Virus record (IMG/VR): IMGVR_UViG_3300027721_000010
Coordinates: 31,003 to 95,002 of that record
Strand: one strand, 5' to 3'
Length of the DNA stretch: 64,000 bases
Source: a virus
Taxonomy: Duplodnaviria > Heunggongvirae > Uroviricota > Caudoviricetes
A program made the position numbers and the translations under genes. Each line of letters opens with the position of its first letter. Position 1 is the stretch's first letter. Below the pieces are notes generated by a model. The model saw nothing but the letters and a program-made list of their open reading frames with translations. It had not been told where the DNA came from and ran no database searches. This document shows, piece after piece, positions 1-57,340 of the stretch.

Positions 1-2524
1 TTCCACTCGTACCTGATGTTCCATTGGTTCCGTTTATCCCACTAGTACCACTTGTGCCCGTAGTGCCTGAAGTGCCATTAGTTCCGTTCACTCCACTGGT
101 GCCACTTGTTCCACTTAATCCACTAGAACCACTTGTTCCACTTGTGCCGCTTACACCTGATGAGCCAGAAGTTCCGCTTGTTCCTGTAGTACCACTTGTA
201 CCACTCACTCCAGAAGTCCCGCTAGTACCAGAAGTCCCATTAACACCAGATGTGCCATTCACACCACTAGTACCACTACTACCTGAAGTACCTGTAGTTC
301 CAGAGGTACCATTATTTCCTGAAGTGCCTGAGCTTCCGCTAGTTCCAGTGGTGCCTGATGACCCTGAGGTGGCTGATGTACCAGAGGTACCAGAGGTAGC
401 AGAAGTTCCGCTACTTCCTGATGTACCAGTGGTACCTGAAGTGCCTGAAGATCCTGATACTCCTGAGCTTCCAGAAGACCCACTGGTTCCAGTGGTACCA
501 GATGTACCCGATGTACTAGAAGAACCAGAGCTTCCTGATGTTCCACTTGTTCCATTCACCCCACTAGTACCTGAGGTACCAGAAGGAGGGGTGAATGTTG
601 TTTGGGCATAGGAATAGTTACTTGTTCCTTCTGTATAGAAGGTGATGTTTTGACTTCCGCCCCCTGTATGCTCAGCATAGATTTGGCAATAAAGCCTGTC
701 TGTAGCAAGTATTGCTGTAGAAGGAAGGAACAAGTCTGTAAAAAATTCCTTTAGAATATTAATGGTCAAAGGTTCGCTATCAAGATTAGTGGTTCCTAAG
801 AGTACCACACTTCCACCTGTGGAGTCACACTTATAAAACTCCACATCCACCTTTACGGTGACAGTAGCATCTATTGAGAAGTGTGTCACCCATGTCCATA
901 GACCAGAAGGCAATTGTGTCACTCCTGGTACATTTGAGTCTGTAGCATATGTAGCAATCAGTGTTCTTGTGCTGCCTGCAACGCTTGTTACCACTGTTTG
1001 TTCTGCTCCACCTGTAGGTGTACCAGACCATTGTTTATATGTAGGAGTGCCTATTGCACTACTAGTATTTACTGATTGGTTAAGATAGTACACAAGTCCA
1101 CCAGATACACCATTTTGACCTGATGTACCGCTAGTACCCGTTGTACCTGATGTACCTGTAGTCCCACTTGTTCCTGTGGTTCCCGAAGATCCAGAAGATC
1201 CACTTGAACCACTACTTCCAGAAGTTCCAGTGGTGCCAGATGAACCACTAGTACCACTCACACCTGAGCTACCGCTAGTTCCTGTTGTTCCACTGCTTCC
1301 TGAAGTTGCGCTTGTTCCTGATGTACCAGATGAACCAGCTGTTCCAGAGCTTCCTGAAGTGCCTGATGTTCCATTTATTCCACTAGATCCTGACGATCCA
1401 CTTGTACCAGAAGTTCCTCCTGTACCATCTGTGCCACTACTGCCACTAGATCCACTGCTACCAGAAGACCCACTAGAACCAGAGGTTCCTGTGGTGCCGC
1501 TAGTGCCTGAAGTTCCAGTGGTACCACTAGAACCTGAAGATCCTGAGGAACCACTGCTTCCACTTGTACCATCTATACCTGACGAACCCGATGTTCCAGA
1601 AGTGCCTGTACTACCTGAGGTACCTGATGTTCCTCCCGAACCACTACTACCACTAGTTCCTGAACTTCCTGAGGTGGCGCTAGTACCAGAAGTACCAGAC
1701 GTTGCTGACGTACCACTAGATCCTGATGTTCCACTATTACCGCTAGAGCCAGATGTACCAGATGTACCGCCTGTTCCATCAGTACCTGATGTACCAGAAG
1801 AACCTGCTGAACCAGATGTGCCACTGCTACCAGATGTACCATCCACTCCAGAAGTGCCCGAAGAACCACTAGTACCCGTAGTACCACTGCTTCCAGAGGA
1901 ACCTGAAGATCCACTTGAGCCTGACAAACCAGATGAACCACTAGTTCCAGAAGAACCCGTTAATCCACTACTACCAGAAGTACCAGATGTACCACCCGAG
2001 CCAGAGCTTCCGCTAGTACCACTTGTGCCACTTGTTGCACTTGTACCAGAGGTACCTGTCGTTCCACTTGTACCAGCTGAACCTGAAGTTCCACTAGAAC
2101 CACTAGTCCCAGTGGTACCACTTGTTCCATTAGTACCATCTATTCCACTAGTACCCGATGTACCTGTTGTTCCTGATGTACCACTAGAGCCACTTGTGCC
2201 ACTACTTCCACTTGTTCCTGTAGTGCCAGAAGTACCAGATGTGGCAGATGTGCCGCTGGTACCGCTCGTACCATTTGTACCAGACAATCCAGACGATCCT
2301 GAAGTTCCTGCTGTTGCAGAAGTTCCTGAAGAACCAGAACTTCCTGAAGTCCCTGTACTGCCACTAGATCCCGAGGTGCCAGATGTTCCTGAAGTGCCAG
2401 AACTTCCACTTGACCCAGACGTTCCACTAGTTCCACTGCTACCTGCAGAACCAGAAGAACCTGTTATTCCGCTGGTACCAGAGGTTCCAGAGGTTCCCGA
2501 TGTACCAGAACTTCCTGCAAGACC
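1..2524 (-). CDS. Collagen-like Gly-X-Y repeat region of a tail fibre. The repeats are (G-T/S-S/T)n and are interrupted by a roughly 190-aa globular insert that maps to plus-strand 611 to 1176. The frame has no in-frame ATG, is open from the TAA at 2525-2527 to beyond the window start, and is probably joined to the 2464..3033 N-terminal domain by a -1 frameshift.
   Basis: I translated the minus strand by hand. The frame is open for more than 2.5 kb, including the non-repetitive 611-1176 segment where repeat composition alone would not keep a frame open, and Gly falls at every third residue. The plus-strand PxV ORFs (24..611, 1176..2594) are its mirror image and break at the non-repeat segment. 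The whole surrounding 52 kb is minus-strand coding. Confidence 0.5.
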
Positions 2525-3033
2525 ATTAGCAAAAGCATCCTCTATCTTCTCAATGACCACCTGGAGGTTGTCATTGGTATTAATCTTTGTATAGATTAAA
2601 TTGGGTCCTTCATAAAACACACAAGTTGCGTTCAATATGATAGGGCATGGATTAGCTGCACATATTACAGGCGCACATGTGAAATCAGAATTGCATTGGT
2701 TATTACCAAACAGCTTAGATATAAAAGGTTGATCAGGGTCAGTGGGTGTCTCAGCTACAACTACGTTAGAGAAGACTGTACTATTTAATATATCTTCGTT
2801 ATAATTTATAGACGTACTTACAGGATCAGGAGTATGATACTGAACGCTATTATACAGTTTAGACAAAAAAGAAGGCTTACCAGCTGATGTATCAACTGGT
2901 TCAGATAACGTTGACCCCTCAATAGGAAGAGGGGAACAGCTTTCTAAAAAGTCTGGTGTATGGGGAACAGCTTCACCTGATGTACCAGATGAACCTGAAC
3001 TTCCATAACTTAGTATATTAGGAAGTACGTTCA
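2464..3033 (-). CDS. N-terminal domain ORF of the fibre: ATG at 3033, 189 codons, stop TAA at 2464-2466. Residues about 125 to 170 ([49 protein letters not shown]) are homologous to the N-terminus of the adjacent 131-aa protein. The last 18 codons look like out-of-frame read-through of the collagen region.
   Basis: Hand translation from the ATG at 3033. This ORF is missing from the ORF track because it is shorter than the threshold once the frame change is taken into account. The motif shared with the 3043..3438 protein supports a real protein domain. Confidence 0.5.
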
Positions 3034-3042
3034 TGTCTTAAA

Positions 3043-3438
3043 TTAGTGTACGATTTTCAATACGTCACCTGTACGGTAAACTTGACCTGCAAGCAGACCG
3101 CCTGTAATAGCAGCAGCATTGTCAGCATATTCAGGAGCCCCTGTATAGGGAACAGACAAGACAATTCTCCAATCCAAGGCACCTGTGCCTGTGGTTTGGG
3201 CATAGTAAAGATTCTTAGCCCCACTAGTTCTTACAAAAAGTTGGCCTAGATAGGTGCCAGCAATGGTGGGAGCTCCAGTTCCAGATTTGGGAACTAGGTT
3301 ATTGTTTATCTTACCAAGTGCAACCTCCAGAGAATCAAGGGGGTTGATGTCAGCATTGGCAAGATAGGGACCATTGTAGAGTACGCACAGAGCGTTCTCA
3401 TAGGTGGCACAGGTTGGGCAAATTGCAGCAGTACGCAT
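3043..3438 (-). CDS. Small 131-aa fibre-associated protein. Its N-terminal Cys motif (CPTCATYENALCVLYNGPYLANADINPLDSLEVALGKIN) is shared with the downstream collagen-like fibre, so it could be an anchor or adaptor domain or a short fibre.
   Basis: ORF with an ATG start, tightly spaced in the minus-strand operon, and the motif shared with the neighbouring gene. Confidence 0.5.
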   Translation of the reverse strand: MRTAAICPTCATYENALCVLYNGPYLANADINPLDSLEVALGKINNNLVPKSGTGAPTIAGTYLGQLFVRTSGAKNLYYAQTTGTGALDWRIVLSVPYTGAPEYADNAAAITGGLLAGQVYRTGDVLKIVH

Positions 3439-3514
3439 ATTAGCAAAATTAGTTGTTAGTAATGTATTTTCAATGAGTTATAAGCAAATAGATAGCATAA
3501 TATAGCTATCCCAT

Positions 3515-4156
3515 CTATCTAATTCCTGACTGGGAAGGCATTCTGATTCCCAGGTCCTTGGCGGTCTCAGGAGAGAACATTGGAAGAAGCTGAGCTCCCT
3601 GGCTGGTAATGGGAAAAGACTTCATTAAATACTTAATGACGTAGTTCTTTTCTACCAGTTCCTCATCTCCTATGGCCAACCCGTACATCTCCTTTCCAAA
3701 GTTGGTAAGGGTTTTCTTGTAGTTTTCTATAAGTCCCAAGGATGGGAAAATACCCTGAGACACTAGGTTGAATATATTGGTAGGATTGTAGAAGTAGGCA
3801 ATCTCATCTGTGAACTTATCCGTAGCCTTGAGCATGAACTTCCATCTGTTTCTTACAATTGGGTCCTCATCCTCGTCAGGCATATTTGCCTTGAGTCCAA
3901 AGTAGATAGCCAAGAGACCTAGGAAGATAAGCAAGTCTAACATCTGGTTTTTCATGTTGGCTCTAACCAAGCTAATGAATTCATCCTCAGTCATTTCCAA
4001 CTCCTTACCAGTGTCTTTTTCGTAGTCCGCTTTCTTTTGTTCATAAAGCTGACGGATCTGTTGAACAAACTTATCATCGTTGCCAAGAATAGCACTCTTG
4101 AGGCTATCCAAAGCATTAATAGTATCTGTAGCTACGAATCTAAACAGCATTCTCAT
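3515..4156 (-). CDS. Hypothetical protein of 213 aa with one predicted TM or hydrophobic segment (LLIFLGLLAIYFGL).
   Basis: ORF with an ATG start, and operon context. Confidence 0.45.
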   Translation of the reverse strand: MRMLFRFVATDTINALDSLKSAILGNDDKFVQQIRQLYEQKKADYEKDTGKELEMTEDEFISLVRANMKNQMLDLLIFLGLLAIYFGLKANMPDEDEDPIVRNRWKFMLKATDKFTDEIAYFYNPTNIFNLVSQGIFPSLGLIENYKKTLTNFGKEMYGLAIGDEELVEKNYVIKYLMKSFPITSQGAQLLPMFSPETAKDLGIRMPSQSGIR

Positions 4157-4165
4157 TATACCACA

Positions 4166-7100
4166 CTAATAGGCATCTGAGGCAGAGTTGTATTTTAAGT
4201 TACCAAAACGTACGTCAATCAAACGAGGAATCCAGTTCTTGAACACCATGAATGAGTTGCTGTATACATTGAGGTTGATGAGACGCTTGTTAGCCTCAGA
4301 CATGTTACCCAGAGCATCTGCTGTAACTTGTTGCACCTTCCTTCTGAGCTCAACAACACTTTCAGACTTCTGTTCTACGCCAGGGATGGTGAACTGATCT
4401 CCTTCAATTTTAGCAAGTTTCAACACACCCTTCTCTTCAATCAGCTTCTGTACATCCTGTTCAAACTTATCAGCCCTAGCCTTTCTTTCTTCTCTAGTTC
4501 CGTCGTACATCTTGTTGAGGTATTCAGGTTGCTTTCTCAAATACTCTCTAGCGTTAACCACCTCACCATTAACCACTACGCTGTTCTCAAGGAAGGCATA
4601 GAAGTTAACAGCCTGTACAGCACGGTCAGACTTTCTCATCAATATCATGAGCCAGTCTTGTATACTCTCTTGACTCATCTTGCTGAGAGACAAGTCTTTA
4701 GCTAAGTCTCTATTGTAATTTTCTGTAAAAGGCATGAAGAAGTTCATAGCTGCTACATACTTCTTAGCATCTTCTCCTCCAAGTTTATTCCACAAGAGCT
4801 TACCCTCAGCCTTTACAAAGTCAGATTTAGTAAAATACTTACCTGAGTTGATCAAGGATTGTGTAGTACCACCAAACAAGTTGGACATGGATGATAGAAC
4901 GTTCAAGCCCAGAGCCTGCAGTTGGAAGGTGGTATTCAGAGCATCGATGCTCTTGTTCATACTAATTTGTCTTCCACCCAATCCTTCAGGCATCAACTTA
5001 AATCCAAGCGTTTTGTTTATCTTTTCTCCTACACCACCAATCTTTCCAAGCACGCTATCAAATGTATCACTCTCAATAAACTTCTGTTGATAGATGATTG
5101 CCTTGGTCATATTCTCTATGATTTGGGCATTCTCACTATTGTCAGGATTATATTGAAGTTCACCATCTTTATATTCTGTCTTTCCCCAGAAAGATGAGGC
5201 GATTGATCTTTTGTTTCTTTCAAGTCTATTTAATGCAAGTGCTTGATCTTCAATGTCACTGAGGTATTTATATCTTAGAGCAAACTCATTATACAGAGCT
5301 ATTGTACGGAATAAATCCGTACTCACCTCACTATCCAGCTCTCTGGTAAAATAGATAGGAATTCTATCCACCAACTTACCGCTGATAGGATCACGCTGTC
5401 CATACCCCACATCACCCTCATCAATAGATATCGTCCTGAGGAACTGCTCACCTATAGTGACATTACCACCAAGGGCTAGTTTCTCTGTCAGTCCTTTTCT
5501 CACCCAAGGCAAGAACACTCTAGACTGCTTAGCATTGATGTATCCAATATCTCTGTACATCTCGTTTCTCTCACGGATGTAGTTATAGAAATCAATGGCT
5601 GGTTGGTTAACAAACTTACCAGAAGCATCCTTCTTTGTGAGCTCCTTCCATTCTTTAGACTCCCAAGTTTCCTTATTAGGAAACTGTTTCACCTCATCGT
5701 ACAACAGCCATCCCAAGGACTGGTCTGTACTAACATTGTATAGCTCCTTTGCTCTTCTCAATTCATTCTTAATCTGGCTAGCAATATCTTCTTCTGTACC
5801 AATGCGAGGTTTATCAAATATACGTGCCTCTTCCTCAGTTAGTTTCTTACGTAGGTGTTCAGCATAAGCAGCCCTATCTACATTCTCTCTAATCCACTTA
5901 TAGTCCTTTTGGTCTATAGCAGAGTTGAGTCTTGAATAGAACTGAGGATTAAACTCATCAATCAATTGATTCTTATCTCTGATGGCATTCTGATAGCGCT
6001 CCTCAATCTTCTCCACCTCCTGCTTGTATGACTCATCAGTGAGCTCAGGTTTCATCTTGTTGAGCTCATCCATTTCAGCTTTCTTGCGAAGCTCAGCTTC
6101 CTTCTGATATGAATCAGCTTTCTTTCTAATGATGTCAAAGTAGTTCTTAGCAGTGAGACCTTTTGATCTAGCCCATGCATCATATCTTTTCTTTATCTCG
6201 AGGAGCTTTCTGCTTTCTGCAGCTGTGTCCATACCTGCATAAGTGAATGCGCGGTTGGCTTTTCTAAACAGAACACTTGCAGCTTTAAGCTGTATAGTGG
6301 CTGTGCTACTAAACCATTTACTCACTCCTCTTACAGACTTCTCTCCTTCCTTAGCTCCCTTCACCTTTTCAGACATTGCAATGAAGTCATTGGTAAAGCT
6401 CTTATCAAGACGTAACAGTCTGGATCTCAAGAGCTTAGCTTCAGCACTAGCTTTATAGATTTCGTTCTTAACATCCTCAGTAGCTTTATCAAGCGTACCT
6501 CTGAACAGGAAGTCAAGTTCTGTAGCTAAGTCAGAATACGTATCTAGTGCATCCAATCCATCATCTATTTCTTTTGTAAATGCACTACGCTCTTCTTCTG
6601 TAAAGCTTTCAGGATCTTTGCCCTTGAACTTCTCATCAAACTTGGTGAATATATCGTTGATCTGTTTGTTGATTATACGAGCCTGATAGACAAGAGCTTT
6701 AGCATCTCTTCTCATTTGAAGATGACGTATAGCTGTATACAGAGAGTTAAGCTGTTCAGCCTTGCTCAGTTTCTCACCAGGCACCACCTTTCTCTCAGAC
6801 ATTCTCTTGTAGATGCTATTGAGTTTAGTCAACAGATCATCAAGCTCTTCTTCTCCTGTAGCTTCTTCCTCTAGACCAACAGGAAGCAGGTAATCTTCCT
6901 GGATGTTCTTTATGTCTACATCTCCAATCTTTATGCTAGAAAGACGTGGTAGGATTTCCTTTTTGTAGTCAGCTTCTGTATACACAGCCTGAATAGGAAT
7001 CATCCTGGTCTGGTCAAACTGCTCCTCCTTAATACCATATGCTGTTTTGAGGATCAACTTGTACTGGTTCATTTGTGTACGCCATGCGTTCACCTTGTAC

Positions 7101-8629
7101 CAAGGAATGTCCTCATACTTGTTTGTATTGAGGTTAGTAAACTTCCAGTCAAGTATGTTCACCTTACCATCTTCCGTAATAGCAATGAAGTCAATTGTAC
7201 CAGCAATACCACCCCCTGCTCTTTTAGCATCATACACCACAGCCTCAGAAAGGAATCTTGCATTAGGACCAAATGAGTCCAGACGCTTCTTCAGGTTGTC
7301 TCTAAGGATGGTGTAATACTTACGGTCCTGATTGTTTAGCTGAGAAATGTAAGCATCATCATTCAGCGGCTCAGGTCTCATCAATCCTGTCTGAGGATCA
7401 ACATATACACTAAATGCGTATTCCAAATCAGCGTGTCCAGCTGTACCCTTATCAGCCTTCATGGCATCAATAGCCTTCTGGAACTCTGTATCTGTCAGCT
7501 TCTTCTCTCTAAATCTATACTCATACCAATCGTTAACAAGATCTGTTACACGCCTGGGAACCTTTTTACCATTCACATAGTAACCATCTCCACGCTTCTC
7601 AACAGCCATGGAGCCGCTCTTGATGGTGTTAAATATCTGTTCCTGCTTAGATTGTTGCAAGAACACCTCGTTCTCATTAGCACGGACGTCATCAACTGTA
7701 CCAATTTCTTTTCCAGAGATGATGTCCATAGCTGCCTGGTCAAATCCACTTCTAGAGAACAGCCCTTTGAGCCACTCTAGAATTTGAGCCCACCAACCTT
7801 GCACCTTAGCCAGTTTCTCAGCGCTCTCTTTATTATTCTCACCCTGGTAGATGATAGTTTCAGAAAGCACCTTGGCAATAGCCTCATCCTTGATCTTCAG
7901 TACATTAGGTTTACCATCTTCGGTTTGATATAAAGGATTGTTGCTATACTCAGCAAACGTATCTCTCAATATCTGATAGCTATTAATCTCACTGAGTAGT
8001 CTTTGATAGAGCTTAGGATTGGTCTGCTTAATGATCTCTACAGCAAAGTGCATGGCTTCTTCAGGAAGAGCTCTGCTCTCCATACCATTCACCACCTGTA
8101 TAAGCTTCTGTGTAACAATGGCTGCAGCGTTAGCATCCATCTTAACACCATTAACAATGATGTTATCCACTCCCTTTATATTCACACCAATACGACCAAG
8201 GAAATCCTTGATCATCTTGATGGTTCTGGGGGATGCGTTAGAGGATACAGTGCCTCCACGCAGTTGAAACAATGTTCCCTGCTCAGGCTTTTGTAACTTG
8301 CTCCATTCTCCTTGTGCCAGTGGGTGCACATTAACTAGCACCTTTTTGTTATTACCAGCTTTTGTGAATGCGCTCTTGATTAAATTCTGACCCTGAGGAA
8401 CTTCATACTTAGCGTTTAGCTCAGCAATGAAGTTGATTTGCTTTTGGTTTTGGTCTGTTCCTATTTTAGAGAATAGGTAAGTGGCAGTTTCACCATCTCC
8501 ATACTTTCTGAATAGGTTAGACTTTTCTATATCTTTCCAAATAGCCTCATACTTGTCCGTGAGTTTATCAGCCAACTCAGGATAGTTCTTGCGGTATTCT
8601 TGTTCAATATACTTTACTCTACAGGCCAT
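4166..8629 (-). CDS. Large virion-associated protein of 1487 aa, candidate ejected or cargo protein. No motif recognised.
   Basis: Uninterrupted 4.4-kb ORF that directly follows the giant 4258-aa gene, with a 5-nt gap. Confidence 0.6.
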   Translation of the reverse strand: MACRVKYIEQEYRKNYPELADKLTDKYEAIWKDIEKSNLFRKYGDGETATYLFSKIGTDQNQKQINFIAELNAKYEVPQGQNLIKSAFTKAGNNKKVLVNVHPLAQGEWSKLQKPEQGTLFQLRGGTVSSNASPRTIKMIKDFLGRIGVNIKGVDNIIVNGVKMDANAAAIVTQKLIQVVNGMESRALPEEAMHFAVEIIKQTNPKLYQRLLSEINSYQILRDTFAEYSNNPLYQTEDGKPNVLKIKDEAIAKVLSETIIYQGENNKESAEKLAKVQGWWAQILEWLKGLFSRSGFDQAAMDIISGKEIGTVDDVRANENEVFLQQSKQEQIFNTIKSGSMAVEKRGDGYYVNGKKVPRRVTDLVNDWYEYRFREKKLTDTEFQKAIDAMKADKGTAGHADLEYAFSVYVDPQTGLMRPEPLNDDAYISQLNNQDRKYYTILRDNLKKRLDSFGPNARFLSEAVVYDAKRAGGGIAGTIDFIAITEDGKVNILDWKFTNLNTNKYEDIPWYKVNAWRTQMNQYKLILKTAYGIKEEQFDQTRMIPIQAVYTEADYKKEILPRLSSIKIGDVDIKNIQEDYLLPVGLEEEATGEEELDDLLTKLNSIYKRMSERKVVPGEKLSKAEQLNSLYTAIRHLQMRRDAKALVYQARIINKQINDIFTKFDEKFKGKDPESFTEEERSAFTKEIDDGLDALDTYSDLATELDFLFRGTLDKATEDVKNEIYKASAEAKLLRSRLLRLDKSFTNDFIAMSEKVKGAKEGEKSVRGVSKWFSSTATIQLKAASVLFRKANRAFTYAGMDTAAESRKLLEIKKRYDAWARSKGLTAKNYFDIIRKKADSYQKEAELRKKAEMDELNKMKPELTDESYKQEVEKIEERYQNAIRDKNQLIDEFNPQFYSRLNSAIDQKDYKWIRENVDRAAYAEHLRKKLTEEEARIFDKPRIGTEEDIASQIKNELRRAKELYNVSTDQSLGWLLYDEVKQFPNKETWESKEWKELTKKDASGKFVNQPAIDFYNYIRERNEMYRDIGYINAKQSRVFLPWVRKGLTEKLALGGNVTIGEQFLRTISIDEGDVGYGQRDPISGKLVDRIPIYFTRELDSEVSTDLFRTIALYNEFALRYKYLSDIEDQALALNRLERNKRSIASSFWGKTEYKDGELQYNPDNSENAQIIENMTKAIIYQQKFIESDTFDSVLGKIGGVGEKINKTLGFKLMPEGLGGRQISMNKSIDALNTTFQLQALGLNVLSSMSNLFGGTTQSLINSGKYFTKSDFVKAEGKLLWNKLGGEDAKKYVAAMNFFMPFTENYNRDLAKDLSLSKMSQESIQDWLMILMRKSDRAVQAVNFYAFLENSVVVNGEVVNAREYLRKQPEYLNKMYDGTREERKARADKFEQDVQKLIEEKGVLKLAKIEGDQFTIPGVEQKSESVVELRRKVQQVTADALGNMSEANKRLINLNVYSNSFMVFKNWIPRLIDVRFGNLKYNSASDAY

Positions 8630-8634
8630 ATTAA

Positions 8635-11600
8635 TTATCTTTTACAAGGAGCTGAATCATCTGCTCCCTCAAGGTTTTCAGGATCGGTATCAAAAAGATC
8701 TAGTTGTTTTGCCTCAGAAATTTCTGTAGGTGTATCTACCTTTACATCTGTTGTAGGAGTAGGAGACTGCTGCATAACATCATCCACCTTAATGTCCTGA
8801 GACAGAGCAGCAATGATGTCATTGTTAGGAATCTCGTTCTTGATTCTAACAGTGTTGTTATCCACTACAGAAGGTTTGAAGTCTGTGTAATACTCTGATC
8901 CAAAAGCACCCTCACCGTATAGGTTGATGAGCTTGTACACATACTTGTTCTCTATCTGACCCTTGTAGTTCTTTACACCTATTGTTACAGGAGTGCCATC
9001 TGGATAGGTAACTTTCTGATAACCAAGCACTTGTGTGATAAGTGGGTTGCCAGCCTTCTTCATCAGGGCATATGCTTTCTTAGAAACACCTACACCCTTC
9101 AGAACATCCACAAGTTCACCACCATTTTTATTAGCTACCACTCTCTTAATCTTTACGTAGTCACCACTAGAGATTGCATCGTTGTCATAATTCTCGTCCA
9201 AATATAGGATTTTTCTTTCTGTGGATTTGATTTTAAGTGCATCATTGCTAGGGAAAACAGGAGAGTAGTATTCGTATACAGCCTCACCAGCGATGTCTGA
9301 GAAGAGTGGTTGCTGGGAGGTAGTAATGAAGAACACCTTGTTCAGCGGATAGAAGACCATTTTATCATCCCAGTTATTACGCTGGAACATGCCCTGAGCA
9401 AACGCTTCCATGTCTTCTGTTACTCTGAGTCCAGCAATTACAGGAGCCACAGTAGCGCTGTAATCCTCAATCGGGATGATGTTTTTGATAGACACCCCTG
9501 TCTGGTATGTACCCTGAAGGATGGATAGTGTAACTAAATCCTTGTACAGCTGGTTAGTTTTGGGGTTGTTTCTAAGCTCCCTCATCATACCAATGTACAT
9601 GTTCTCACTGGCAGCATCCTTTACATTTGCCATCAGCATCACCGTATGGATACCATTGTCTCTATTGAATCTCACCTCAAGTTGTCTGAGGATTGGTAAC
9701 TCGTTGGCGTACAGTGTTTTAGCTTCTGCCAGACGTGTAGCCACAGATGTGTTAGCGTCAATAAGCAGAGGTTTGATAGAAGCATTCAGTCCTGTTCTAG
9801 TTTGGATAACATAGTCTAGGAAGGATGCTCTTATCTTGTTTGCTATACGAGCGTAGTCATCCTCAGATATGAAGTCTCTCTTCTTGTACTGGTCAAGGAT
9901 TTGATTTGTAATAGCCTTAAATCTGTCTTGATCTAATACAAAGATGGAACCAGCAGCATCCACAGACATACTAAGAATTCTTTTCTGCTGTCCGATGTGG
10001 GAGTTGTTAAGGACCTCTTCAGGTGATGTGAAGATGTTATTCTCCATAGCCATATCAGTCTTCATAATCTTCTTACCCAGCGCATCAGAGCTCTTGAACT
10101 TAGTAGTGTCGTAGTTAATAGCCTGTGTAAAGTTGAAGTTGTATTGGGCCATCTTAGCCAGTCTCAAGAACTGCTCAAATATCAACTGCTGCTCAGCATT
10201 CTTCTTGAGGGTGCTAAGTTTACCGTTCTGTGCAAACTCACTGATGTTATCTGCAAGAGTGGACGTATCAATAGTGTTAGCCACCTCAGCAACATCTCCA
10301 TCTTTTACAGGGAATCTGTTCTTGATGTTCTTTATGTTCTCAGCACGAAACAGTCCACGAGATTCTGTTCCTTCTACAAGCTCCAAGTATTGCTTGATGA
10401 TTGGTTGGTTCATGAACAGAGCTGCTGTACGAAGAGGAACACCAATTCTCTGCATGAGCATGAATGTACCTACAGCCTTATCACTTCTAATAATCTTCAT
10501 GATGTATGGGTCCTTAGCCACATCCACAAATGATGTGATGTATCCAGACAGACCATCAGAGATGTACATTTTACCATCTGCATCCAGTACACCAGACATA
10601 GATATATACTCTTTCCCATTGATTGTCACCTTGTTGTGAGGCAACAGAATGGTGCCATCACCCAGGAACTTCTGGTCAAACTCAGATGTGTTCTTGATTC
10701 TCTCAGGGTCCATGTACACTGTAACCTTTTGTGACAAAGAGTGGTTAGTGATATTTACAGCACCAATACCCACCCAGCGCTTAGCAGTTACAAACGCATG
10801 TCTGAGGGTAGTCATGTAGTTGGGATCAAGAATCTTGTTCTTTACATCCGCTTCTTTATCATTTGTAAGAGTCTCAAGCTCTGATGCAATCTTCTTCAGA
10901 CCACCATCTGATACAGGAGTGAGTAGACGTTGGAAGTTTTCAGGAAGTGTAATCAGTTCCTCAAGAGAATCATAGTATTCGTTCTCGAGGGAGCGCTTAT
11001 ACATGTCCTCTACATAGGATGTCTTGAGCTTATCATTAAGAATCTTCTTGGTCAGTTTTACCTTCTTATTTTCCAGATTCTCAACCTGTTGTGCAACGTA
11101 CTCGCTTGCACTAATATTATTATCTGCAGCTTGTTTTACAATCTCCTTAAACATGTTAAGGTGGTCATAGAAGAAATCAATGTCTTGTTCATCCAAAGCT
11201 GCGTTTATGGACTCTGTAGAGAAGTCTGACAGATCCTCTAGATCAATCAGCACCTTGAACATTCTATCTCTAAATCCTTCAAACTTTTCTATTCTGTCAA
11301 TCTCAGCCTGAACAGTATCTTCGTACACCTTTGTAAAGAATGCTTTTGTAGCTTCCTCAGATCCTTTGTATTTAACAAGTCTGACGTTACCTGTAGCATC
11401 TACATATACGTTTCTCAGGTAGGTGTTGAGTTTATCTATGTCAAAGTCAGATCCTGCCTTGGTAACCAGTTCTGTAGGAACAACCACTGTGTCACCCATG
11501 TATTGAGGAAGGAACCCTGCCACCTTGAATGAGTCTACGGAAGACAAAGATTGTGTAGGAATACGGAATCCGATACCTCTCAGAATCTTCTGACCATCAG

Positions 11601-14600
11601 GACTCTTGTTAATATAGTCTAAGATCTCTTGGTCAGTCTTGAACTTCTTAGCAGCCAGTTTATCTTTAAACCAATGAGGTAATAACACCTCCATGTAAGG
11701 CTTATCCTTTGTATAGAACTTGAGGGTGTCGCTTGTCATGCGCACATTCTTCTTCTCACTGTCATCCAGTGCCTCATATTCCTCTCTAGATATCTTCTTC
11801 CATCCTTCGTCAGTTTTCAGAACCAGGCTTCTTCCTTTCTCAGCACTCTCCCACATGGTTACAGGAGCCTGAACTAATGGCTTACCACCCATAGACGGAG
11901 AAAGGATAGCTTTCTCAATCATCGAGTAGATGATGTTTCTAATCTGTACATAGGAAGGTGATGCTTCAAAAGGAATTCTGAACTCGTCTTCCTCATTAAG
12001 TCTCACTGTATCCTTGGCGTTTTCAGAGAGCTCTCTACGGAACATCTCATATACCAACACCTCAGACAATGCTTGTTTATCTTCAAGTGTAAACCCTTGA
12101 CCGTTGTCTACAATACCTAGTTTGTTGAGCAAACGATTGTAAGCATTTACATGCATTCTATCTAGGTCTCTAACATTACGCTTGTATAGCTCTTTGATAT
12201 ATTCAGCACGTGCACCTGTAGCTCCAAACACCTGACCATTAGCAAAAAGGTCAATGCTTGCAAGCTTTGTCAACTGTGAACCACGGGTTTGTTCTTTACC
12301 CTCATCATAGATGTTCTCTACCTGGATACCGTATGCCTTCCAAGGAACATCAACAAAGTTGTTAAATGCTTCCTCATTAAAGGTACCGTTGGGGTTGTAC
12401 AGATTGTGCAGACCCTCAGCACCCACCTTTCTTCCTGATTCTACAATTGCATAACCATATCCTTGCTCCAACATTTGTGTGTAGAACTTCTCCATGCTGG
12501 TTCCTTCCACCATGCTATAGTAGATAGGCATCTGAGAGAACTTGTCCAACACTAGGTTGATGCTGTTTGAGTTGTATTTAACACCAGAAACAATAGGCTT
12601 CAATATCTCCAGTGTGTATTTGGGAGAAGGTGTAGAAGTGAGCTTCTGGTCGTAAGCTTTGAGCTCAGGACTTGTGTAGGTATACTTACCCTTAGCAGCC
12701 AGCTTCTTTCTTGTATAAGCCATCTGCCACTGGTGGAAGTTTTCAGCCTCATCAGACCATTGACCGTTCTTCAGCTTCACCTCTCTGAAGGTATTATCCA
12801 TCAGCCAGGAAGCAGCATCTGCCTCATCAATACTACCATAGGCAGGAATGATGTTAGCCAGAGCACTAGCTATCTTAGGATCTGCAAGAGTGACGGTTCT
12901 TGTATAGGCCTTGTGATTATGATAGCCAGGATCTCCAGGCTTAAGCATAATACCAGCCACCTCGTTCATGTTGTCATTCAGGAAGTTATCAAACGCAGCT
13001 ACATCAAATGTAGTTCTACGTGGAGACAGGAAGCTCTTGATACGCTTGGTCTCATCAAACTTACCATTCTTTGTAGAGAACTGAAGAGGATCACCAAAGA
13101 GCACCTTGTGATACTCAATGTTATTAATAGTGTAGTTGGCAGTTCTGAACATCAATATTTGCTTCAGAACATCTTCTACAATTGGTTGATTCTTATTGAT
13201 ACCAAACTTACGAGCGAATGTATTGTCCAAGCTATCCCATGTCCAGCCAGCCTCAACAGGAGAGATTTGACTATTTCTCTGGAGGATGTTCATAGTCTTT
13301 GTAGAAATACCGTCCAAGAAAGCAGCTACATCCTGATTTATAGAATCCTGGTTCTCATTTACATACTTCTCAATCTCCTCCATAGAAACTGACTTATCAG
13401 CGATCATGCTGTTCAGTTTCTCTAGGGTTTTAGGACGGAGGATATCATTAAAGAAGCGCAGCTCCTTAGCTCTTGCCTTAACATTGTTCAGCTTACCGCG
13501 AGTCTTATAGTCACGGGCTAGAGCAATGTCATCCATCAGATAGCCCTTGTAGATTGAGTAGATCTTGTTCCAAGCCTTTCCATCTACAAACTCTTGATAA
13601 CCAATCTGATTGCCCACATTCATCATCCATTCTGTAGAGCTATCTGCAGGGATGAGAATGTAGAAGTTACCATTCAGGTTCTCGTTAATCTCAAGAGAGA
13701 ATCTCTCTCCAAGTCCAAGCTTAGAAATAGACTTACTATCAGCATCATCAGAGTTGTCGATTCCCTGGATGGTCATCACCTTGATCTCTCTGATTCTGTT
13801 GCCCTCTTTATCAAAGTAGAGTCCGCCTTTCTTCAGGATTTGAGAGTGGGTGGAGAACATGTCTTGTAGCTCAGGACGCTTTTCTAATAGCTCATCCAGT
13901 GTAGCAGCTTCATTGAACTCGTTCTCAAACACTGATGCAGTGTTGTTATCAATGTAGGCCTGCATTCTCTTTCTCTCAATACCAAAGTAGGTGATGTCCT
14001 GGTTGGGGTTGTTTGCATTTACATACAAACGACCAAGGTTATTCAGCTGTGTGGTGATGCCCAGTGTCTGGCTGGTTACAGTGAGTAGGTCATCTGCGCT
14101 CTGTAAGAAGGCACGGATGTCTTTTACAGCATTAGCAAACTGATTCTTTTGACTCTTGTCCCCACCATAAGTCTTCAGCTTCTTGTATGTATCTAGGTCG
14201 AACGTAACACCAATCTCATTCAAAAACTCAATCATCTGCTTAGGAGAACTAATAGGCATCTCCTTCAGCTTCTTGGTGTTAGCTTTATAAGTTTCTGTTT
14301 TACTGTCGTAGATAACAGCTCCCTTAGATGTTCTAGCCAACACCTTCATGTTGTTCACCCAGGTGTCAACTTGTTGTCTAGCAGCGGTTTGTACGTTCGC
14401 AGGAGTGGTGAATGTCTCACCTCCAGCAATACGCTGTACCATTGCATCAGGTCTCTGTCTTGTAAAGGTTTGCATGAAGCTGATGAAGAATCTCCAGTCC
14501 TCAGCTTTAAAGTTGCCGTATGGAATAGATTTGTCTTTCTTTCCACCCAGACGTGTGAACATGCGAACGTAATCAGCATCATTGGCAGCAAGCTCTATGA

Positions 14601-17600
14601 GCTTGTCCATTGTCTTATTTACATCACTGCTGTTGGATAGTCTCTCAAGCAATGTAGCAAATGCTGTACTGAAGTTGAGTAGCTTATATCCCAGCACCTC
14701 TGGATCAATCTGTGCATCAGGCATCTCAAGACTGAGAGAGTTGCTCTGATCCATGGCCTTAGCCTTGAACAGGGTGGCCAAGGTGAACTTGACATCAAAA
14801 GATGCCCCCTTCTTAATATCTACAGTGAATGCTTCTGGAGCATAGTCGTTCTTGTTGGTGTCCTCACCATTAAGACTTAGTCTATCCTCTGTATCAAAGT
14901 TCACGCCCAGGGTGCGCAGCTTCTCTTTTGTTCTCTGTACCAGTGCGTTCCAACGAGCATCTCCAAGCTTGGTGCGTTTGTTTACACCACCCCATCCTGG
15001 AGTGTCGCCTTCTCTCAGATACATTTGTTCTACCTCTCCAAATATCTGCTTGCTTGTAAGCTTCTGTGGAGAGTAGAGATATTTCTTTGCCTTGAGGAAC
15101 ACTAGACCAGCAACTCTTGCTGTCATGTCCTCAACAAACTTCTGAGCTGCTTGCTCAGACAGTCCTTCAATTTCTCTATACGCAGCAGCCTCATTCTTCA
15201 CAGTGTCAGGGAGAACACTCTCCTTATACTTACCCATGTCAATTGCATCAAACAGTTGTTGTTTGAGCGTGGGCTTAGCATTAAAGTTCTTGAAGAAGTT
15301 GATGATAGATCTGAAGAATCTGAGAATCAACTCTTTAAGACTTCTTGCAGGAAGTTTACCCACTCTGAAATCAGCAAAGTCATCAGCAATTCTTTCTTTA
15401 GCTTGTGTATCTGTGGCAGCAGCATACTCAACATCAGTTCCACTAGCTCTATCTCTGAAGGTGCCAGACTGACTTCTGAACTCATTCAGTAGGTCTTGTC
15501 TTTCACCAGGAGACAGGAATCCTTTCCATATACCCTCAAAGATTTCATGGTATTCTGTACCACGTGTAGCGCTTCTGTAGAACTTAGCCACACCATTCTC
15601 AAACACACCCCAAGCTGTAATGTCTGGGTTTCTGCGGATGATGTTTTCCAATATCTCAAAAGGAATACCAGGAACGTTAGCAGCGTGCCATTTCCTGAAC
15701 TCAGCCAAGTCTAGGTTGTCAATCTTATCTTCTTTCTTCTCACCCTTAGCCACTACACGGAAGTCTGTGCTAGGTCCTGTAGTGCCTTTGTTATCATAAG
15801 GTTGAGCTGCAGGTTTAGTTTCTTCTAAAGCAGATATCTGCTCATTGGTGATCTTTGCACCAAGGATAGAATTAAAGTCAGCAATAACTTCTGCAGAAGG
15901 TACGGGTAGCACCAGGTCTGGAAAGGTCATGCTTACAGAAGATCCTAGCTTACCAGGTCTTCCTAATCCACTAAAATAAGCAGAGGTAACATATTTAATC
16001 TTATCACTCTCAGTAGTAATTTCTTTGTTGGTCTGAGGGTCCAACACCTTACCCAGTCGCTTGAACGTATCGTTATAAGCTTTTAACTGTTCGTAAAGAT
16101 TGAGCAGATAGGTTTTGGTTGCAGCAGACATGCTTTGCAACTGCGCATCTGTAATAACATCATAGCGTTTACCATTGCCCTCATAGAACGCTTGCTCCAG
16201 TATTCTGAAAACTGTCTTGTTTACTTCTGTTGAAACTGGTGCAGCAGTAGGCTTAGCCTCTTCACCAAGAGCTCTACGATTGATAATATCTTCATACTCA
16301 CCCACATTTGTTGCACCAGACTCTTGATAGGAAAGAAGACTATGTTGGAACTCGTGCTCTATTACAAACTTCTCAAACTCTTCATATGTAGCAAATGCAT
16401 TCTCAGGAAGAGCTGTAGCAAAAGAACCATCCTTCTGTTTACGTGGTTTGGTCCAGGCCTTCTCATCAAACTTCTTTTTAAGAAGATCTCTGTTCACCAA
16501 TATCTTATTCTCAGCACGATTGTATTGAGCAGCACCAGGTTCTCCTGTAGCTGTTGTGATACTACTGCTGTCCACTACAGTGATTCCTTTATATGTCTCT
16601 GTAGCAGGGGCAGCTTCTTCTGAAGGAGTGGGTTTCTCTTTGAGTTTCTTCTCTAAAGAGGCACCAGCTATAAGACCAATGTAATCACCTGCAATCTCCT
16701 CATCCGTCTTAGCAGCATCCTTTACACGATCATATCTCTCAAGCTGTTCAAGCTGAGGAACTATTTGGGTATTTATGAGCTCCTTGTTCTTTGCAATCCT
16801 AGCCACTGTGTCTCTAGTGAGTTGACTATCAACTAGTTCCACTGTAACAGAACCATTAGGTTCAACACTGGCTGTGAACTCAAAGTTTCCAGACTCTTTT
16901 CTAAGCGAGAATACATTAGGAGTTTTACCATCTAATACATACCCATCAACTGTGGGAACTCCTTCAGCTTCAGCCTGTTGAGCAGGAGCTGTGTATTGTA
17001 CATCCAGCTCCAATCCTTCCAGAGTGGAATACTTCTGTTTGTAGGAATATGGTTCAGCTGGTGTGGGTTTAGATACAGACGTGAATAAAGGGGTGTCCTT
17101 TACAGCACGCTTACTACCATCGGGATAGGTGGCAGACAACAAATAGGAGTTGTAGCTAGCCCACTCTCTGGAAGCAATCTGATCATTCTCATCTATGAAG
17201 TATTCAGTGAACGCGTAGTCACTGTAAATAGTCTTATTGTTTACGTTAGAGAAGGTCTTCTGGAGTTCTTCTATTATCTCTGCTTCTCTATCAGCCACCT
17301 CAGACAGAGGAATATCCTTACCTGCAATACGGAGATCCATAGTTTCAGGGTTGATATACACCTGATTCTTGGAAGGACTCTTTCCTTGCTTCCAGTGAAG
17401 GACGTTCTGTAGGAAGTTTACATAGGACTCTTCTAGATTACTATTTAATGTAAATCCTTTGGATAGCTCACTGAGTAGACGGAAGATTGTTTTGGCCTCA
17501 GCCTTAGTGAATCTTCTATTGTTCAACACCTGGAGGGTGTCACCATACTGTAAAACAGGTGTACCTCTCAACACGTTGACAGGCAGTCCGTTATGTACAA

Positions 17601-20600
17601 TCTCACCTGTAACAGATATTACAATCAGTCCTTTGTTACTAGTCTTGTCTTCAGGAACCAACACCTCACCTACGTGGTTTCTCTCAAAGGTCATCACTGG
17701 TCTACCCTCAGCATTACGAACAGGATTACCATCCTCATCTAATGCAGGAGTGTCATTCACAATAGGAATACCACGAGATATACGGAAGTCATGGATAGTG
17801 AAAGCTGTAGCAGGAGCACCCATAAGTTGCTCTCTATACTTAGACCAAGCCTCTGAATAAGCTTTAGCCTCAGCCTCCTGACCAGCTCTGTAACGAGCTT
17901 TATTCTTGCTATCATTGAGCTCAGCAGTGGGCATTGTTTGGAACACCACCTTATTCAAATCCACCTGTGTTCCCACCTCATTCATAGGATTACCAGCCTC
18001 ATCTGCAAAGAACAGCTTGTTGCCTTTTTGGACAACAAACACTTGGGCAATAAATCCTGTGTCAGGCTTTCTCACCTTCTCATTAAACTCTTTCAGCTCA
18101 GCCTCAGTCATCTTGGTTGTATCCACTTTGAAGGACAAAGCAGCTAATCCCACAAGTCCCAGGCTAGCCTCTTGATTAGGTGTAACAAGGATGGCCTTAA
18201 CATTAGCTCTGTTCTTATTGTTCTTTACATTATTCAGGAACTTTCTAGAACGTACAATGTGAGGGGCTGACTTGGTAGGATCATTGTAATCCTCTGATTC
18301 TGTCATGCTTGAGGTGAATAGAATAGTTGCTTCTTTCTTAGCAGGCTCTCTTTCACTAAACTCCTGAGAGGAGTCAATAGTGGTTACAGTACCAGAGTTC
18401 TTTTCAAGTTCATCTTGTTGACGTGTGAGCTCTTCTTTCTTCTCAACTAGTTTCTCCTGAGCAGTTTGAACTCTCTCATACCCAGTCAGTTGCTTGGGTT
18501 GGATGTTCTGTATATTACCAGCGAGGTCTTCTACCTTCAATGTACCATCCTCATTGATTTCCAACACCTTAACCTTTTGCAGGTCTTGGAGATCAGCATT
18601 CATATCTTCTGCAGCTTGATCAGCATCCTCCTTATTATCATAGAAGGTGCTTTCGCCAGTTGGAGACACCACCTCATAACGATCGTCTGCAATCTTGTTA
18701 ACCTTGGCTGGTTTTAATCCTGCAAGCTCATATTCTCTGTCTGCCTGAGGAACCTCTTTTGCACCAGCTTTATTTACAAAGTCTACCTCTGGAATAACAG
18801 CCGCTTCTGGTGTTTCTTCTTTGGAGGCTTCTTCCTCTTGCTCATTAGCCATTTGCTCAGCCTGGTTGAAGAACTTATTAAATCCTTCCTCAGAAGCCAT
18901 CTTATCAAATGACTCAGATGCATCATCTCTGAGCTGTTCAAGTGAGTTTATATCTGTGCCAAGTTTATATATCTCAGCAATCTTCTCTGATGGGATTATC
19001 CTTTTATCAATGCTTTCCTGACCGCTCATCTCAAAGTTGAGCAGGTTCTCAAAGGTCTTGATGTCAATATCACCCTTGTTAAGTGCAAGATTGATACGTT
19101 CAGACAGAGTGCGTAGAGTTTTAATCTTATCTCTAGTCCCTCTTTTATCTGCAGGAGTGGTGAACTCTGTAATAGTATCTCCAAGTGTTTTAGCCTGCTG
19201 TTCATAAGTTTCAGCAAGCTCTTTCAGACTATCTCTTCTAGTCAGGCTTGATATAGTGTCATTACTAAGTAGAGGATTGATTGCAGATAGACTGTTCTGA
19301 ATGTTATTCAATCTATCTCTAACGTCAGGAGCAACGCTAGCATAGTATGCCAGGTTGGTTTTCCAATCGTTGTATGTGTCAAAGTTAAAGTTTTCTTCAA
19401 GCTGGTCTTCTGTTGTAGGATTGATGTGAGAAACAAAAGGATTTTTGAAAGTGAAGTTTATGCTATCGTAAACATCCTTGATCTCATTAGCTTTCTCAAT
19501 CAGAGAGTCTACATACTCGTTAACAGTTTTCTTGCTAGACTCGTTAAAGTCCATTCCAAAGGTCTTCTCAAACTGTTCCTTGTCCAGATCCTTCAGCATC
19601 TCAAGCTGCTCAATGGTAACATCGTGCATGCCAGCAGGAATACGAGAACTTACAAATCCAAAGAATTGCTCATTCTTCAGATTCTTATATCTGAATACGT
19701 TCCCACTCTTTGCAGCCTCTTCCATCTCTCTAGCATTATTTGCAGCATTGAGAGTGTTAGAGTATTGATCTTGCAGGATGCCTGTAAGTCCGTAGCGGTT
19801 TAGAACATTAATGGTACTCTGTAGTCTTTGATCCTTGGTAGGCTCACCCATTGCTTTTTGGATTCTGCCAGCGATACCTCCTGTAATAACAGCAGACAAT
19901 CCACCAATGATCATGTTCTCTATACCAGCACTGCTACCAAACTGTTCAGCCAATCCCTTATTGGTAGATACAAGTGCTTCGTTCAGAGTGTTCCAAGTTT
20001 CTCTATTCTTTGGATCTTTTAGGTTCTTGTACTTTCTAGTGTAATAGTCGTATGTACCTTTCTCTACAGCATATTGTCCACCTTCCTCATATACACCTTC
20101 AGCAAGTACATTTTTCAGGGTGGGTTTTACAGAATCCCACACCTTAGCACCTACACCTGTAAGTGCCTTTCTTTCAAACACATCCAAAGATCCTTCAGCA
20201 AGACCAATTCTTCCTGCATCATCAAGACTTCTTTCGATTGTACCTGGTACACCTTTAGATGCATTAGTAAATGATTTGAACAAGCTGCCAAACTGAACAG
20301 CGTTAGATACAGTGAGCAAAGCCATGTTAGCACCAAACCTGGTGTTCATAGCATCTGTTGCGTATGCTTCGATCTCATCTAGCGCAACTCCTTGAGGTTC
20401 CATTCCTCCGTTCTCACTCCTGTATTGATTGATGAGCTCATCTCTCACCTGTCTGTAGGAGTCTCTAGCTTCAACAGCAGCTTCTGTTCTAGCAGATCCG
20501 TACACGGTGAGACCATAACGAAAACCACTATTAAGTTTTGTAGCTGCAGCAGCTCTTCCTAAATCACTAAGATTGTCAATAAATCTCTCTGACTTTCCAA

Positions 20601-48228: not shown

Positions 48229-48759
48229 CTAATCAAGTTTGTTTATCACCGTGTCATTTATGAGCCTAAAACTCTTGATTGGAGCTAGGTCTGTGAGCGT
48301 AACTTGTTGAATCTCAACGCCCCACTTCTTAGCTTCCACCCTAGCTTTCTTAGCTAATGTGTTGTCAATCTCAGGATCAATGCACTCATCCATGGTTTTG
48401 TCCATTATCACGTTCTTGATAATAGATTGGGTCATGTCAGATATAGCATCCTGTGCGTCATACACTTCCAGAAGAAATGTTTGTACGTCAGCAATCCTAT
48501 ACTTAATTACTCCTTTCACCACAATATTCTGCTTATCCTTGGTGTACAGACTCTGCGGAGGAAGGCTGAGTGTAGTGACTACAACGTGGTTTGTCATAAA
48601 CTCATCCACAATAGGGATTCTGAAATGCAAGCCAGGCTTAGCCACCCTATGGAATTTACCAAATCTAAGAATAACAGCCCCCTCATAATCCATAACAATA
48701 AAGAATGGTAGGAGTTTCTCTATCCAATTTCCTATTAGATCTATAAGCCTATCAAACAT
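48229..48759 (-). CDS. SPFH/Band-7 (prohibitin- or stomatin-like) domain protein of 176 aa.
   Basis: Segments FGKFHRVAKPGLHFRIPIVDEF…VYDAQDAISDMTQSIIKNVIMDKTMDECI…ARVEAKKWGVEIQQVTLTDL match the SPFH consensus. Confidence 0.6.
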   Translation of the reverse strand: MFDRLIDLIGNWIEKLLPFFIVMDYEGAVILRFGKFHRVAKPGLHFRIPIVDEFMTNHVVVTTLSLPPQSLYTKDKQNIVVKGVIKYRIADVQTFLLEVYDAQDAISDMTQSIIKNVIMDKTMDECIDPEIDNTLAKKARVEAKKWGVEIQQVTLTDLAPIKSFRLINDTVINKLD

Positions 48760-57244: not shown

Positions 57245-57318
57245 GATCCTGTAGCTCAGTTGAATAGAGCAACAGCCTTCTAAGCTGTGGGCCATTGGTT
57301 TGAATCCAATCAGGATCA
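57245..57318 (+). tRNA. tRNA-Arg, anticodon TCT (decodes AGA), 74 nt with no encoded CCA.
   Basis: Manual fold. Acceptor GATCCTG/CAGGATC (7 bp); D-arm GCTC-AGTTGAATA-GAGC; anticodon stem ACAGC/GCTGT with loop CTTCTAA; variable loop GGGCC; T-arm ATTGG-TTTGAAT-CCAAT; discriminator A. Confidence 0.85.
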
Positions 57319-57340
57319 CTTAATTTTTCATTTTATATTT

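Follow-up and report, generated by a model that had tools for sequence, protein, structure and literature searches.

The 64,000-nt stretch of a Caudoviricetes genome analysed here (positions 31,003 to 95,002 of IMG/VR virus record IMGVR_UViG_3300027721_000010, hereafter the window) carries, in its first 3 kb and on the minus strand, a gene for a collagen-like fibre, which a first-pass annotation had read as two offset frames that could be joined only by a −1 frameshift. We found that the frameshift is not real, and that a single uninterrupted gene leads from the N-terminal domain into the collagen repeats with no shift required. Minus-strand positions 2..3034 very probably hold the 5′ two-thirds, or less, of one unshifted gene for a homotrimeric collagen-like fibre of an uncultured crAss-like phage. 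The parts of this gene, and two TAA triplets on which the earlier interpretation turned, are as follows:

2..3034, minus strand: 5′ part of the fibre gene, 1011 codons from the ATG and running off the window start, matching collagen family PF01391 (E 6.5e-82)
2969..3034, minus strand: conserved N-terminal peptide, amino acids (aa) 1-22, with four Gly-X-Y triplets (alignment of relatives)
2690..2968, minus strand: variable spacer rich in Pro, aa 23-115, containing two copies of an SF(L/I)SKL(Y/F) motif (alignment of relatives)
2525..2689, minus strand: three-Cys module plus amphipathic helix, aa 116-170, conserved and 43% identical to a neighbouring 131-aa protein
1094..2524, minus strand: collagen block 1, aa 171-647, 159 triplets (triplet counting)
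581..1093, minus strand: globular insert, aa 648-818, predicted all-beta sandwich with a galactose-binding-domain-like or carbohydrate-binding-module (CBM)-like fold
2..580, minus strand: collagen block 2, aa 819-1011 and beyond, at least 64 triplets (117 in the JGI contig L017, where it is still open)
2464..2466, minus strand: TAA cited as the stop of the ATG frame, out of frame (+1)
2526..2528, minus strand: TAA inside gcTAAt, out of frame (+2)

Three-frame translation of minus-strand positions 1-3500 placed the start codon at 3034..3032, 8 bases past the TAA of the upstream gene for the 131-aa protein, and from this ATG a single frame remained open for 1011 codons to window position 2 with zero stops. 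The first-pass annotation had put the ATG at 3033, and this one-base displacement created the two-frame impression, in which the ATG frame appeared to end at 2464-2466 and the Gly-X-Y frame to open, offset by −1, after a TAA at 2525-2527. The TAA at 2466..2464 lies 568 nt (189×3+1) from ATG 3034 and belongs to a different frame, the other TAA is really at 2528..2526, 506 nt (168×3+2) from the ATG and in the third frame, and the first Gly-X-Y codon at 2524 lies exactly 510 nt (3034 − 2524 = 170×3) from the ATG and is in the same frame. The junction DNA reads gct aat ggt ctt gca gga agt tct ggt, which translates in one frame as A-N-G-L-A-G-S-S-G, and the codons quoted earlier for this site (GCU AAU GGU UUG CAG) differ from the actual DNA, where ggt is followed by ctt gca g. 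Frame translation of the window revealed no overlapping ORF (open reading frame) pair and no frame change at the junction between the N-domain and collagen. The program-made ORF list of the window omits the fibre ORF only because this ORF runs off the window edge.

The same contiguity was seen in independent DNA. An exact-pattern scan of JGI metagenomes recovered one contig, Ga0105091_10012944 (L017), which aligned to window 3061..1 with 99.93% identity, 2 mismatches (2916 and 560) and 0 gaps; it is short and ends before the fibre C-terminus, reaching 478 nt beyond the window with the fibre ORF still open at 1170 codons, so that the full gene has at least 1170 codons. An exact-pattern search of IMG/VR for the contig of the window itself gave no match. 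All ten IMG/VR contigs with related N-domains open one ORF at a conserved MNVLPNIL start, and in each of the nine that reach the junction (contig L010 stops short of it) the N-domain continues straight into collagen, within ORFs of 905 to >3499 aa. One relative, L011, which carries an identical 131-aa neighbour and shares 91% DNA identity over window 8680..9, encodes the fibre as a single 1779-aa ORF, and the fibre ORFs of the more distant relatives L018 (3086 aa) and L021 (2868 aa) are also single. The comparison with related genomes, which the first-pass annotation had offered as a check, thus showed N-domain and collagen fused as one ORF across the junction in the IMG/VR loci and in L011, L017, L018 and L021, with the two-frame layout in none of them. 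In an ENA assembly with 92% DNA identity (L013, 982-5372), a frameshift in collagen block 2 splits the gene into 870-aa and 593-aa ORFs with a 4-nt overlap; this split reflects either a mistake in assembly or a natural indel within the repeat, and its site differs from the one claimed for the window.

These data bear directly on the two explanations that would keep a frame change at the junction. Overlapping ORFs joined by programmed −1 frameshifting or transcriptional slippage within 2467..2524 would draw on the minus-strand TAA triplets that do exist at 2466..2464 and 2528..2526, but both are out of frame, there is no overlap, the relatives are single-ORF, and, as the first-pass annotation had correctly reported, no canonical slippery heptamer (X_XXY_YYZ) is present in 2467-2524 (...ggt ctt gca gga agt tct ggt aca tcg gga acc...); we regard such recoding as exceedingly improbable. 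An assembly indel at 2460-2530 that masks a different true frame is just as improbable. Repetitive collagen DNA is open to mis-assembly, as the frameshifted block 2 of L013 illustrates, but the window frame is already continuous and needs no fix, the JGI contig is gap-free against window 1..3061, and the junction itself is unique, non-repetitive and conserved at the protein level in all relatives. In addition, the collagen DNA is degenerate, with Tandem Repeats Finder (TRF) arrays of 62-83% matches, several synonymous codons in use for each of Gly, Thr and Ser, and a longest exact repeat in the collagen region of 17 nt, a degeneracy that limits slippage and recombination; near-identical relatives nonetheless vary in collagen block length. 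With one unshifted gene, the recoding event does not exist and no translational anomaly is left to explain.

The collagen assignment is firm at the family level, with PF01391 scoring 269.7 bits against a cut-off of 27.2, and the earlier description of a Gly-X-Y minus-strand ORF that reaches the window start holds, with 214 perfect triplets. Gly occupies the first position in 214 of 223 triplets across both blocks, Ala or Ser taking its place in the others, and block 1 alone keeps one register through 153 Gly and 6 Ala in 159 triplets. The perfect triplets are dominated by GTS (94), GSS (61) and GTT (18), and their 428 X/Y positions are 87.6% Ser+Thr with 6 charged residues (1.4%) and no Pro, so the usual stabilisers of collagen were not encountered at these positions. 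The triplet register is unbroken in nine proteins (the window protein and eight relatives), while the two blocks range in length over 114-163 and 58-124 triplets, which argues for a structural triple-helix constraint rather than a loose linker.

A search with collagen block 1 matched 50,860 of 1.84 billion representative proteins (E<=1e-3), and among the best 150 of these the median composition at X/Y was 14% Pro and 17% Ser+Thr. The earlier remark that Pro-free GTS/GSS repeats are unusual was confirmed, since only 3 of these best 150 matches combined at least 70% Ser+Thr with at most 2% Pro. In the phage lineage, Ser+Thr accounts for 84-91% in every member and Pro for no more than 0.9%. On these sequence comparisons, a Ser/Thr-only collagen is uncommon without being unique, and the lineage has conserved it.

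The absence of ATG from the collagen frame, to which the first-pass annotation had drawn attention, is correct in frame, where the initiator is the sole Met among the 1011 codons, and incorrect overall, with 33 out-of-frame ATGs within the fibre gene. We considered Met depletion as a possible signal, as the 340 non-collagen residues hold 0 Met (P ~9e-4 against a window-wide 2.0%; the G/S/T repeats make up two-thirds of the fibre protein). This candidate was rejected, because Met is just as scarce in the muzzle homologue (0.45%), in a 366-aa protein (0%) and in the 131-aa protein (0%), and because the insert of the L011 orthologue contains Met 665 and Met 694; the single Met is not remarkable once other external phage proteins serve as the baseline.

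The domain order of the fibre is N-terminal peptide, variable spacer, three-Cys module, collagen block 1, beta-sandwich insert and collagen block 2. By analogy with residues 1-26 of crAss001 gp22 (PMC10172136), aa 1-22 may form a virion-docking segment. The spacer varies among close relatives: in L013, L014 and L015, which are 96-97% identical to the window upstream to 2973, region 2672-2972 (aa 21-121) is replaced by an unrelated, shorter version, and the alignment resumes at 2671 with 82-92% identity downstream, the SF(L/I)SKL(Y/F) motif being present in two copies in the long spacer and one in the short. This pattern suggests that the N-spacer is swapped by cassette exchange or duplication among near-identical relatives.

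Multiple alignment showed that the three-Cys module precedes an amphipathic helix that abuts the first Gly triplet; module and helix may act in trimerisation, chain registration or docking. Fibre aa 130-166 match aa 10-46 of the 131-aa protein with 43% identity (E 8e-7), and the homology spans ~37-48 residues; the proposed kinship between the N-domain and the neighbouring protein therefore stands for this module and not for the whole 170-aa domain. The fibre of L021 starts directly at the three-Cys module, as the 131-aa protein does, which fits a shared docking or partner role of the module.

A non-collagen insert exists as first proposed, but with different limits: 171 aa at 1093..581, not 190 aa at 611-1176, the latter limits coinciding with the ends of two antisense ORFs (24..611 and 1176..2594). 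An AlphaFold2 (AF2) model of the insert adopted an all-beta sandwich (pLDDT 75, pTM 0.74), and its fold matched uncultured phage proteins in a viral structure library (E 1e-13 to 1e-10, TM 0.72-0.76), with matches named 'Collagen triple helix repeat', 'Peptidase S74 domain-containing' and 'Intramolecular chaperone auto-processing domain'. Two alternative inserts occur between the collagen blocks across the lineage, the 171-aa beta-sandwich (window, L006, L011, L013 and L018) and an unrelated ~80-aa domain (GDRFATTSS...VNLDGATGG) in L001 (566-646), L004, L007 (435-515) and L009 (506-584); block spacing indicates that L021 probably carries the ~80-aa insert. A search for the insert among cultured and deposited phages gave one weak match, to an unannotated 642-kb uncultured phage; in the same set neither the DNA of window 2400-8700 nor, by tblastn, the fibre N-domain found a match, and a sequence search of the N-domain against solved structures gave insignificant matches only.

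The distal part of the protein was read in orthologues, as both the window gene and L017 end before the C-terminus. The intramolecular-chaperone domain trimerises phage tail fibres and spikes and then cleaves itself off. Most of the full-length orthologues terminate in such a domain; Peptidase_S74 (PF13884) was detected in L011 above the cut-off (E 1.5e-16) and in L009 below it (E 0.0028), and its SDxRxK motif reads SDARVK in L011, SDERLK in L001, L004 and L018, and SDKRLK in L009. The C-terminus of L011 matched the solved chaperone-domain fibres Bd2133, MYRF and the phage S16 long tail fibre. The parts that follow collagen block 2 differ greatly: in L011 they comprise a globular domain of ~120 aa, a third, short stretch of collagen and ~430 aa of LDASGNLGIGT-type repeats, while L001, L004 and L018 have ~2000 aa of GGxxNxASGxxS repeats of the YadA-head/beta-roll kind and L007 has a small Cys-rich knob. 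PHROG tail-fibre families also match the fibre (E 7e-80), with matches driven by the collagen repeats.

Taking these observations together, we propose an assembly in which the C-terminal chaperone domain and the three-Cys/helix module would gather three chains and set their register, after which the Gly-(Thr/Ser)-(Ser/Thr) blocks would zip into triple-helical shafts. With the collagen rise of 0.286 nm per residue, the shafts are predicted to measure ~135 nm (block 1) and at least 100 nm (block 2). Some way along the shaft, the beta-sandwich insert would make a knob of carbohydrate-binding type. Anchoring to the tail would fall to the N-terminal peptide and/or the Cys module, perhaps with the help of the 131-aa protein bearing the same module, and the distal modules beyond the window would bind the host. 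Such a helix would have no Pro and hardly any charge pairs, so that the terminal clamps are presumed to keep it stable, with a possible contribution from Thr/Ser O-glycosylation by the glycosyltransferases that relatives encode nearby.

Several points weigh against a homotrimeric, triple-helical tail fibre. The 3′ end of the gene lies beyond the window and the distal parts of relatives differ widely (905 to >3499 aa); trimer, triple helix, virion location and glycan are all predictions drawn from sequence; and the AF2 model of the 131-aa partner is poor (pLDDT 50). The gene also follows the cargo/RNA-polymerase-like block, unlike the tail-fibre genes of crAss001, and because of this difference the choice of 'tail' over 'head' fibre leans on the S74 domain. 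Furthermore, peptide studies lead one to expect that a Gly-Thr-Ser sequence with no Pro and almost no charge forms a triple helix only weakly; (Gly-Pro-Thr)10 needs glycosylation (PMC3368898, its ref. 40).

Two other interpretations were weighed. The G-[TS]-[ST] blocks might instead be a flexible, heavily O-glycosylated, mucin-like Gly/Ser/Thr linker between globular domains, as their 0% Pro, 1.4% charged and 88% Ser+Thr at X/Y would suggest, since the known stabilisers of bacterial and phage collagens are missing while in E. coli prophage fibres roughly half of the X positions are Pro and charge pairs occur as well (PMC3368898), and glycosyltransferase genes lie near the fibre gene in relatives. 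Such a linker would, however, tolerate indels of 1-2 residues, whereas the register is never broken in nine proteins, only the small residues Ala and Ser replace the first-position Gly, and trimerising modules flank the blocks (the S74 domain and, in some relatives, YadA-like beta-roll repeats), which makes the linker unlikely. About as unlikely, in our judgement, is a head (capsid) fibre or other decoration in place of a tail or receptor-binding fibre: the cargo/RNA-polymerase-like block ends with this gene, at a distance from the tail-hub genes, and crAss001 has head fibres (PMC10172136), but a C-terminal S74 domain with highly variable distal modules is typical of tail fibres and spikes, and the PHROG matches are to tail-fibre families, even if driven by the collagen repeats. 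A trimeric collagen-shafted fibre, probably of the tail, is the best account of the gene.

Whether such a fibre is glycosylated was considered from the gene neighbourhoods of relatives, the glycosyltransferase genes lying outside the window. In L009, L011 and L013 the genes downstream of the fibre include one for a 1138-aa protein that combines an S-adenosylmethionine (SAM)-methyltransferase with GT4 (Glycos_transf_1) and GT9 (heptosyltransferase-like) glycosyltransferase (GT) domains, placed three genes past the fibre in L011 and L013, and a more distant lineage has a GT1-family gene after the fibre gene:

L013 5908-9324, minus strand: methyltransferase/glycosyltransferase gene
L011 17541-20396, minus strand: methyltransferase/glycosyltransferase gene
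L009 17313-18344: methyltransferase/glycosyltransferase gene
L021 19698-20396: GT1-family gene
L023 14063-14761: GT1-family gene

Thr glycosylation is a known collagen stabiliser (PMC3368898, its ref. 40), and O-glycosylation of the fibre Thr/Ser is plausible on this circumstantial genomic evidence, although these enzymes could serve other targets. A bolder reading, which we consider rather unlikely, is that an entire lineage of abundant environmental crAss-like phages builds Pro-free, essentially uncharged shafts (>230 nm if fully triple-helical) that rely for both folding and stability on phage-encoded O-glycosylation through the methyltransferase/GT4/GT9 enzyme and use the three-Cys module as a cystine-knot-like registration or docking device. 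If true, a sugar-stabilised fibre would represent a third solution to collagen stability, in a virus of bacteria, and this sugar-stabilised-collagen reading is the only part of wider interest.

The repeats also leave a trace on the opposite strand, where two long ORFs lie antisense to the fibre gene:

1176..2594, plus strand: antisense ORF of 472 aa with (V/L/E/D)-P-x repeats, a by-product of the G-[TS]-[ST] codons
24..611, plus strand: second antisense ORF, likewise a by-product of the G-[TS]-[ST] codons

We considered them as genes and rejected them as by-products of codon composition, as the antisense frame stays open because stops in it would need Tyr, His or Gln codons at X/Y, which are almost absent. 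Public gene calls antisense to collagen (280-504 aa) exist in L015 (1808-5392) and in L019 and L020 (10848-13484, ~window 1..2600), and the DNA so called in those contigs corresponds to one 3086-aa fibre gene in L018. These calls, with the broken repeat of L013, indicate that annotation of this phage group is error-prone at the fibre locus.

The fibre gene belongs to a virion module that lies entirely on the minus strand and is of crAss-like type, and, judging from its muzzle, terminase, portal and major capsid proteins, the source phage is an uncultured crAss-like phage:

51356-53380, minus strand: terminase, nearest to Leptolyngbya phage Lbo-JY46 (41%), Cellulophaga phi17:2 and phi4:1 (34%) and gut crAss-like phages
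48759-51356, minus strand: portal (phrog_6547, 6.7e-101)
45237-46790, minus strand: major capsid protein (phrog_11589, 1.6e-31)
29908-35262, minus strand: muzzle homologue, 1784 aa (PF25731 crAss_MUZ, E 1.2e-33)
8635-21411, minus strand: ORF of 4258 aa downstream of the muzzle gene, with no Pfam match
3043..3438, minus strand: gene for the 131-aa protein, whose first ~48 residues contain the same three-Cys module as in the fibre

After the muzzle gene come genes for very large proteins (including the 4258-aa ORF, which sits where crAss001 encodes RNA-polymerase-associated cargo proteins), the equivalent of a 1704-aa gene, the 131-aa gene and the fibre gene. The 131-aa protein is far more conserved than the fibre downstream of it and matched no Pfam or PHROG family. 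It has 698 homologues, a number which indicates that the phage group is abundant in metagenomes; the 120 matches listed have lengths of 113-132 aa and identities of 69% or more, and their contigs reach ~116 kb.

Two further observations concern the same module. ORFs of 1487 aa (4166..8629) and 213 aa (3515..4156) on the minus strand correspond to one 1704-aa gene in relatives, or 2072 aa in L018-L020. They are separated by an in-frame TAG at 4168..4166, which is GAG in nine relatives, and the window differs there by three G-to-T changes 5 nt apart (4168, 4163 and 4158), turning GAG TGG GGT AGA into TAG TGT GGT ATA. No suppressor tRNA that would explain this TAG was found in the window, and the codon could be an error of sequencing, a genuine nonsense mutation followed by re-initiation at ATG 4156, or a site of read-through. 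The window encodes a single tRNA, tRNA-Arg with anticodon TCT (57245-57319, plus strand), which lies at the switch of coding strand and GC skew at ~56 kb.

What merits attention is the protein itself, a lineage-conserved collagen at a compositional extreme, with 84-91% Ser+Thr and almost no Pro or charge. If the triple helix forms, it bears on how collagen can be stable without proline and on whether phages glycosylate their fibres. With its swappable N-spacer, two alternative inserts and varied distal ends, the modular fibre is probably the host-range determinant of a widespread uncultured phage group.

Among known systems, programmed −1 frameshift sites such as that of the phage tail-assembly chaperones G/GT share with the fibre gene only the two-frame impression of the first reading, the gene having neither overlapping ORFs nor a slippery heptamer nor a frame change. 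The layout of a trimeric fibre with swappable distal modules instead resembles fibres and spikes of the S74 type, including K1F endosialidase, the T5 L-shaped tail fibre pb1, the S16 long tail fibre and Bd2133-type proteins, and the orthologues likewise end in Peptidase_S74 with the SDxRxK Ser-Lys motif; the shaft in the window differs, consisting of hundreds of collagen triplets rather than a beta-helix or coiled coil. BclA of Bacillus anthracis, a Thr-rich, O-glycosylated, collagen-like filament of the exosporium, is made mostly of GPT triplets and has a C1q/TNF-like end (see also PMC3368898, its ref. 41). The likeness to BclA invoked by the first-pass annotation holds as an analogy only, in the Thr-rich collagen-like filament and the glycosyltransferase genes near the fibre in relatives. 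The window collagen is Pro-free, the relatives end in S74, beta-roll or Cys-rich modules, Pfam finds Collagen and Peptidase_S74 but no C1q/TNF-like C-terminal domain in them, and no homology to BclA was found outside the repeats.

Within the crAss-like phages, the trimeric fibre gp22 of crAss001 inserts its N-terminal 26 residues into one of the hubs, which disulfides stabilise (Bayfield et al. 2023, PMC10172136). The fibre in the window starts with a conserved peptide of 22 residues and also contains a three-Cys module, and the same phage encodes a muzzle homologue, features that would be consistent with a comparable mode of docking, but its gene position differs and its N-domain is without a match in cultured phages. 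The word 'collagen' is absent from the main text of the crAss001 structure paper (PMC10172136), and a literature search for collagen-like fibres in crAss-like phages gave nothing relevant. A further parallel in architecture is found in the EPclA-D proteins of E. coli O157:H7 (Ghosh et al. 2012, PMC3368898), which are also phage fibres in which PF01391 is flanked by trimerisation modules. The EPcl collagens are unglycosylated, with Pro at ~50% of X positions and numerous Asp/Glu-Lys/Arg pairs (PMC3368898), whereas Pro makes up 0%, charged residues 1.4% and Ser+Thr 88% in the window protein, whose blocks are far longer (159 and at least 117 triplets). On the strength of its sequence features, the protein belongs to the known class of modular, trimeric, collagen-shafted phage fibres, and the fibre gene, though unusual in composition, is of a kind that is ordinary among phages.

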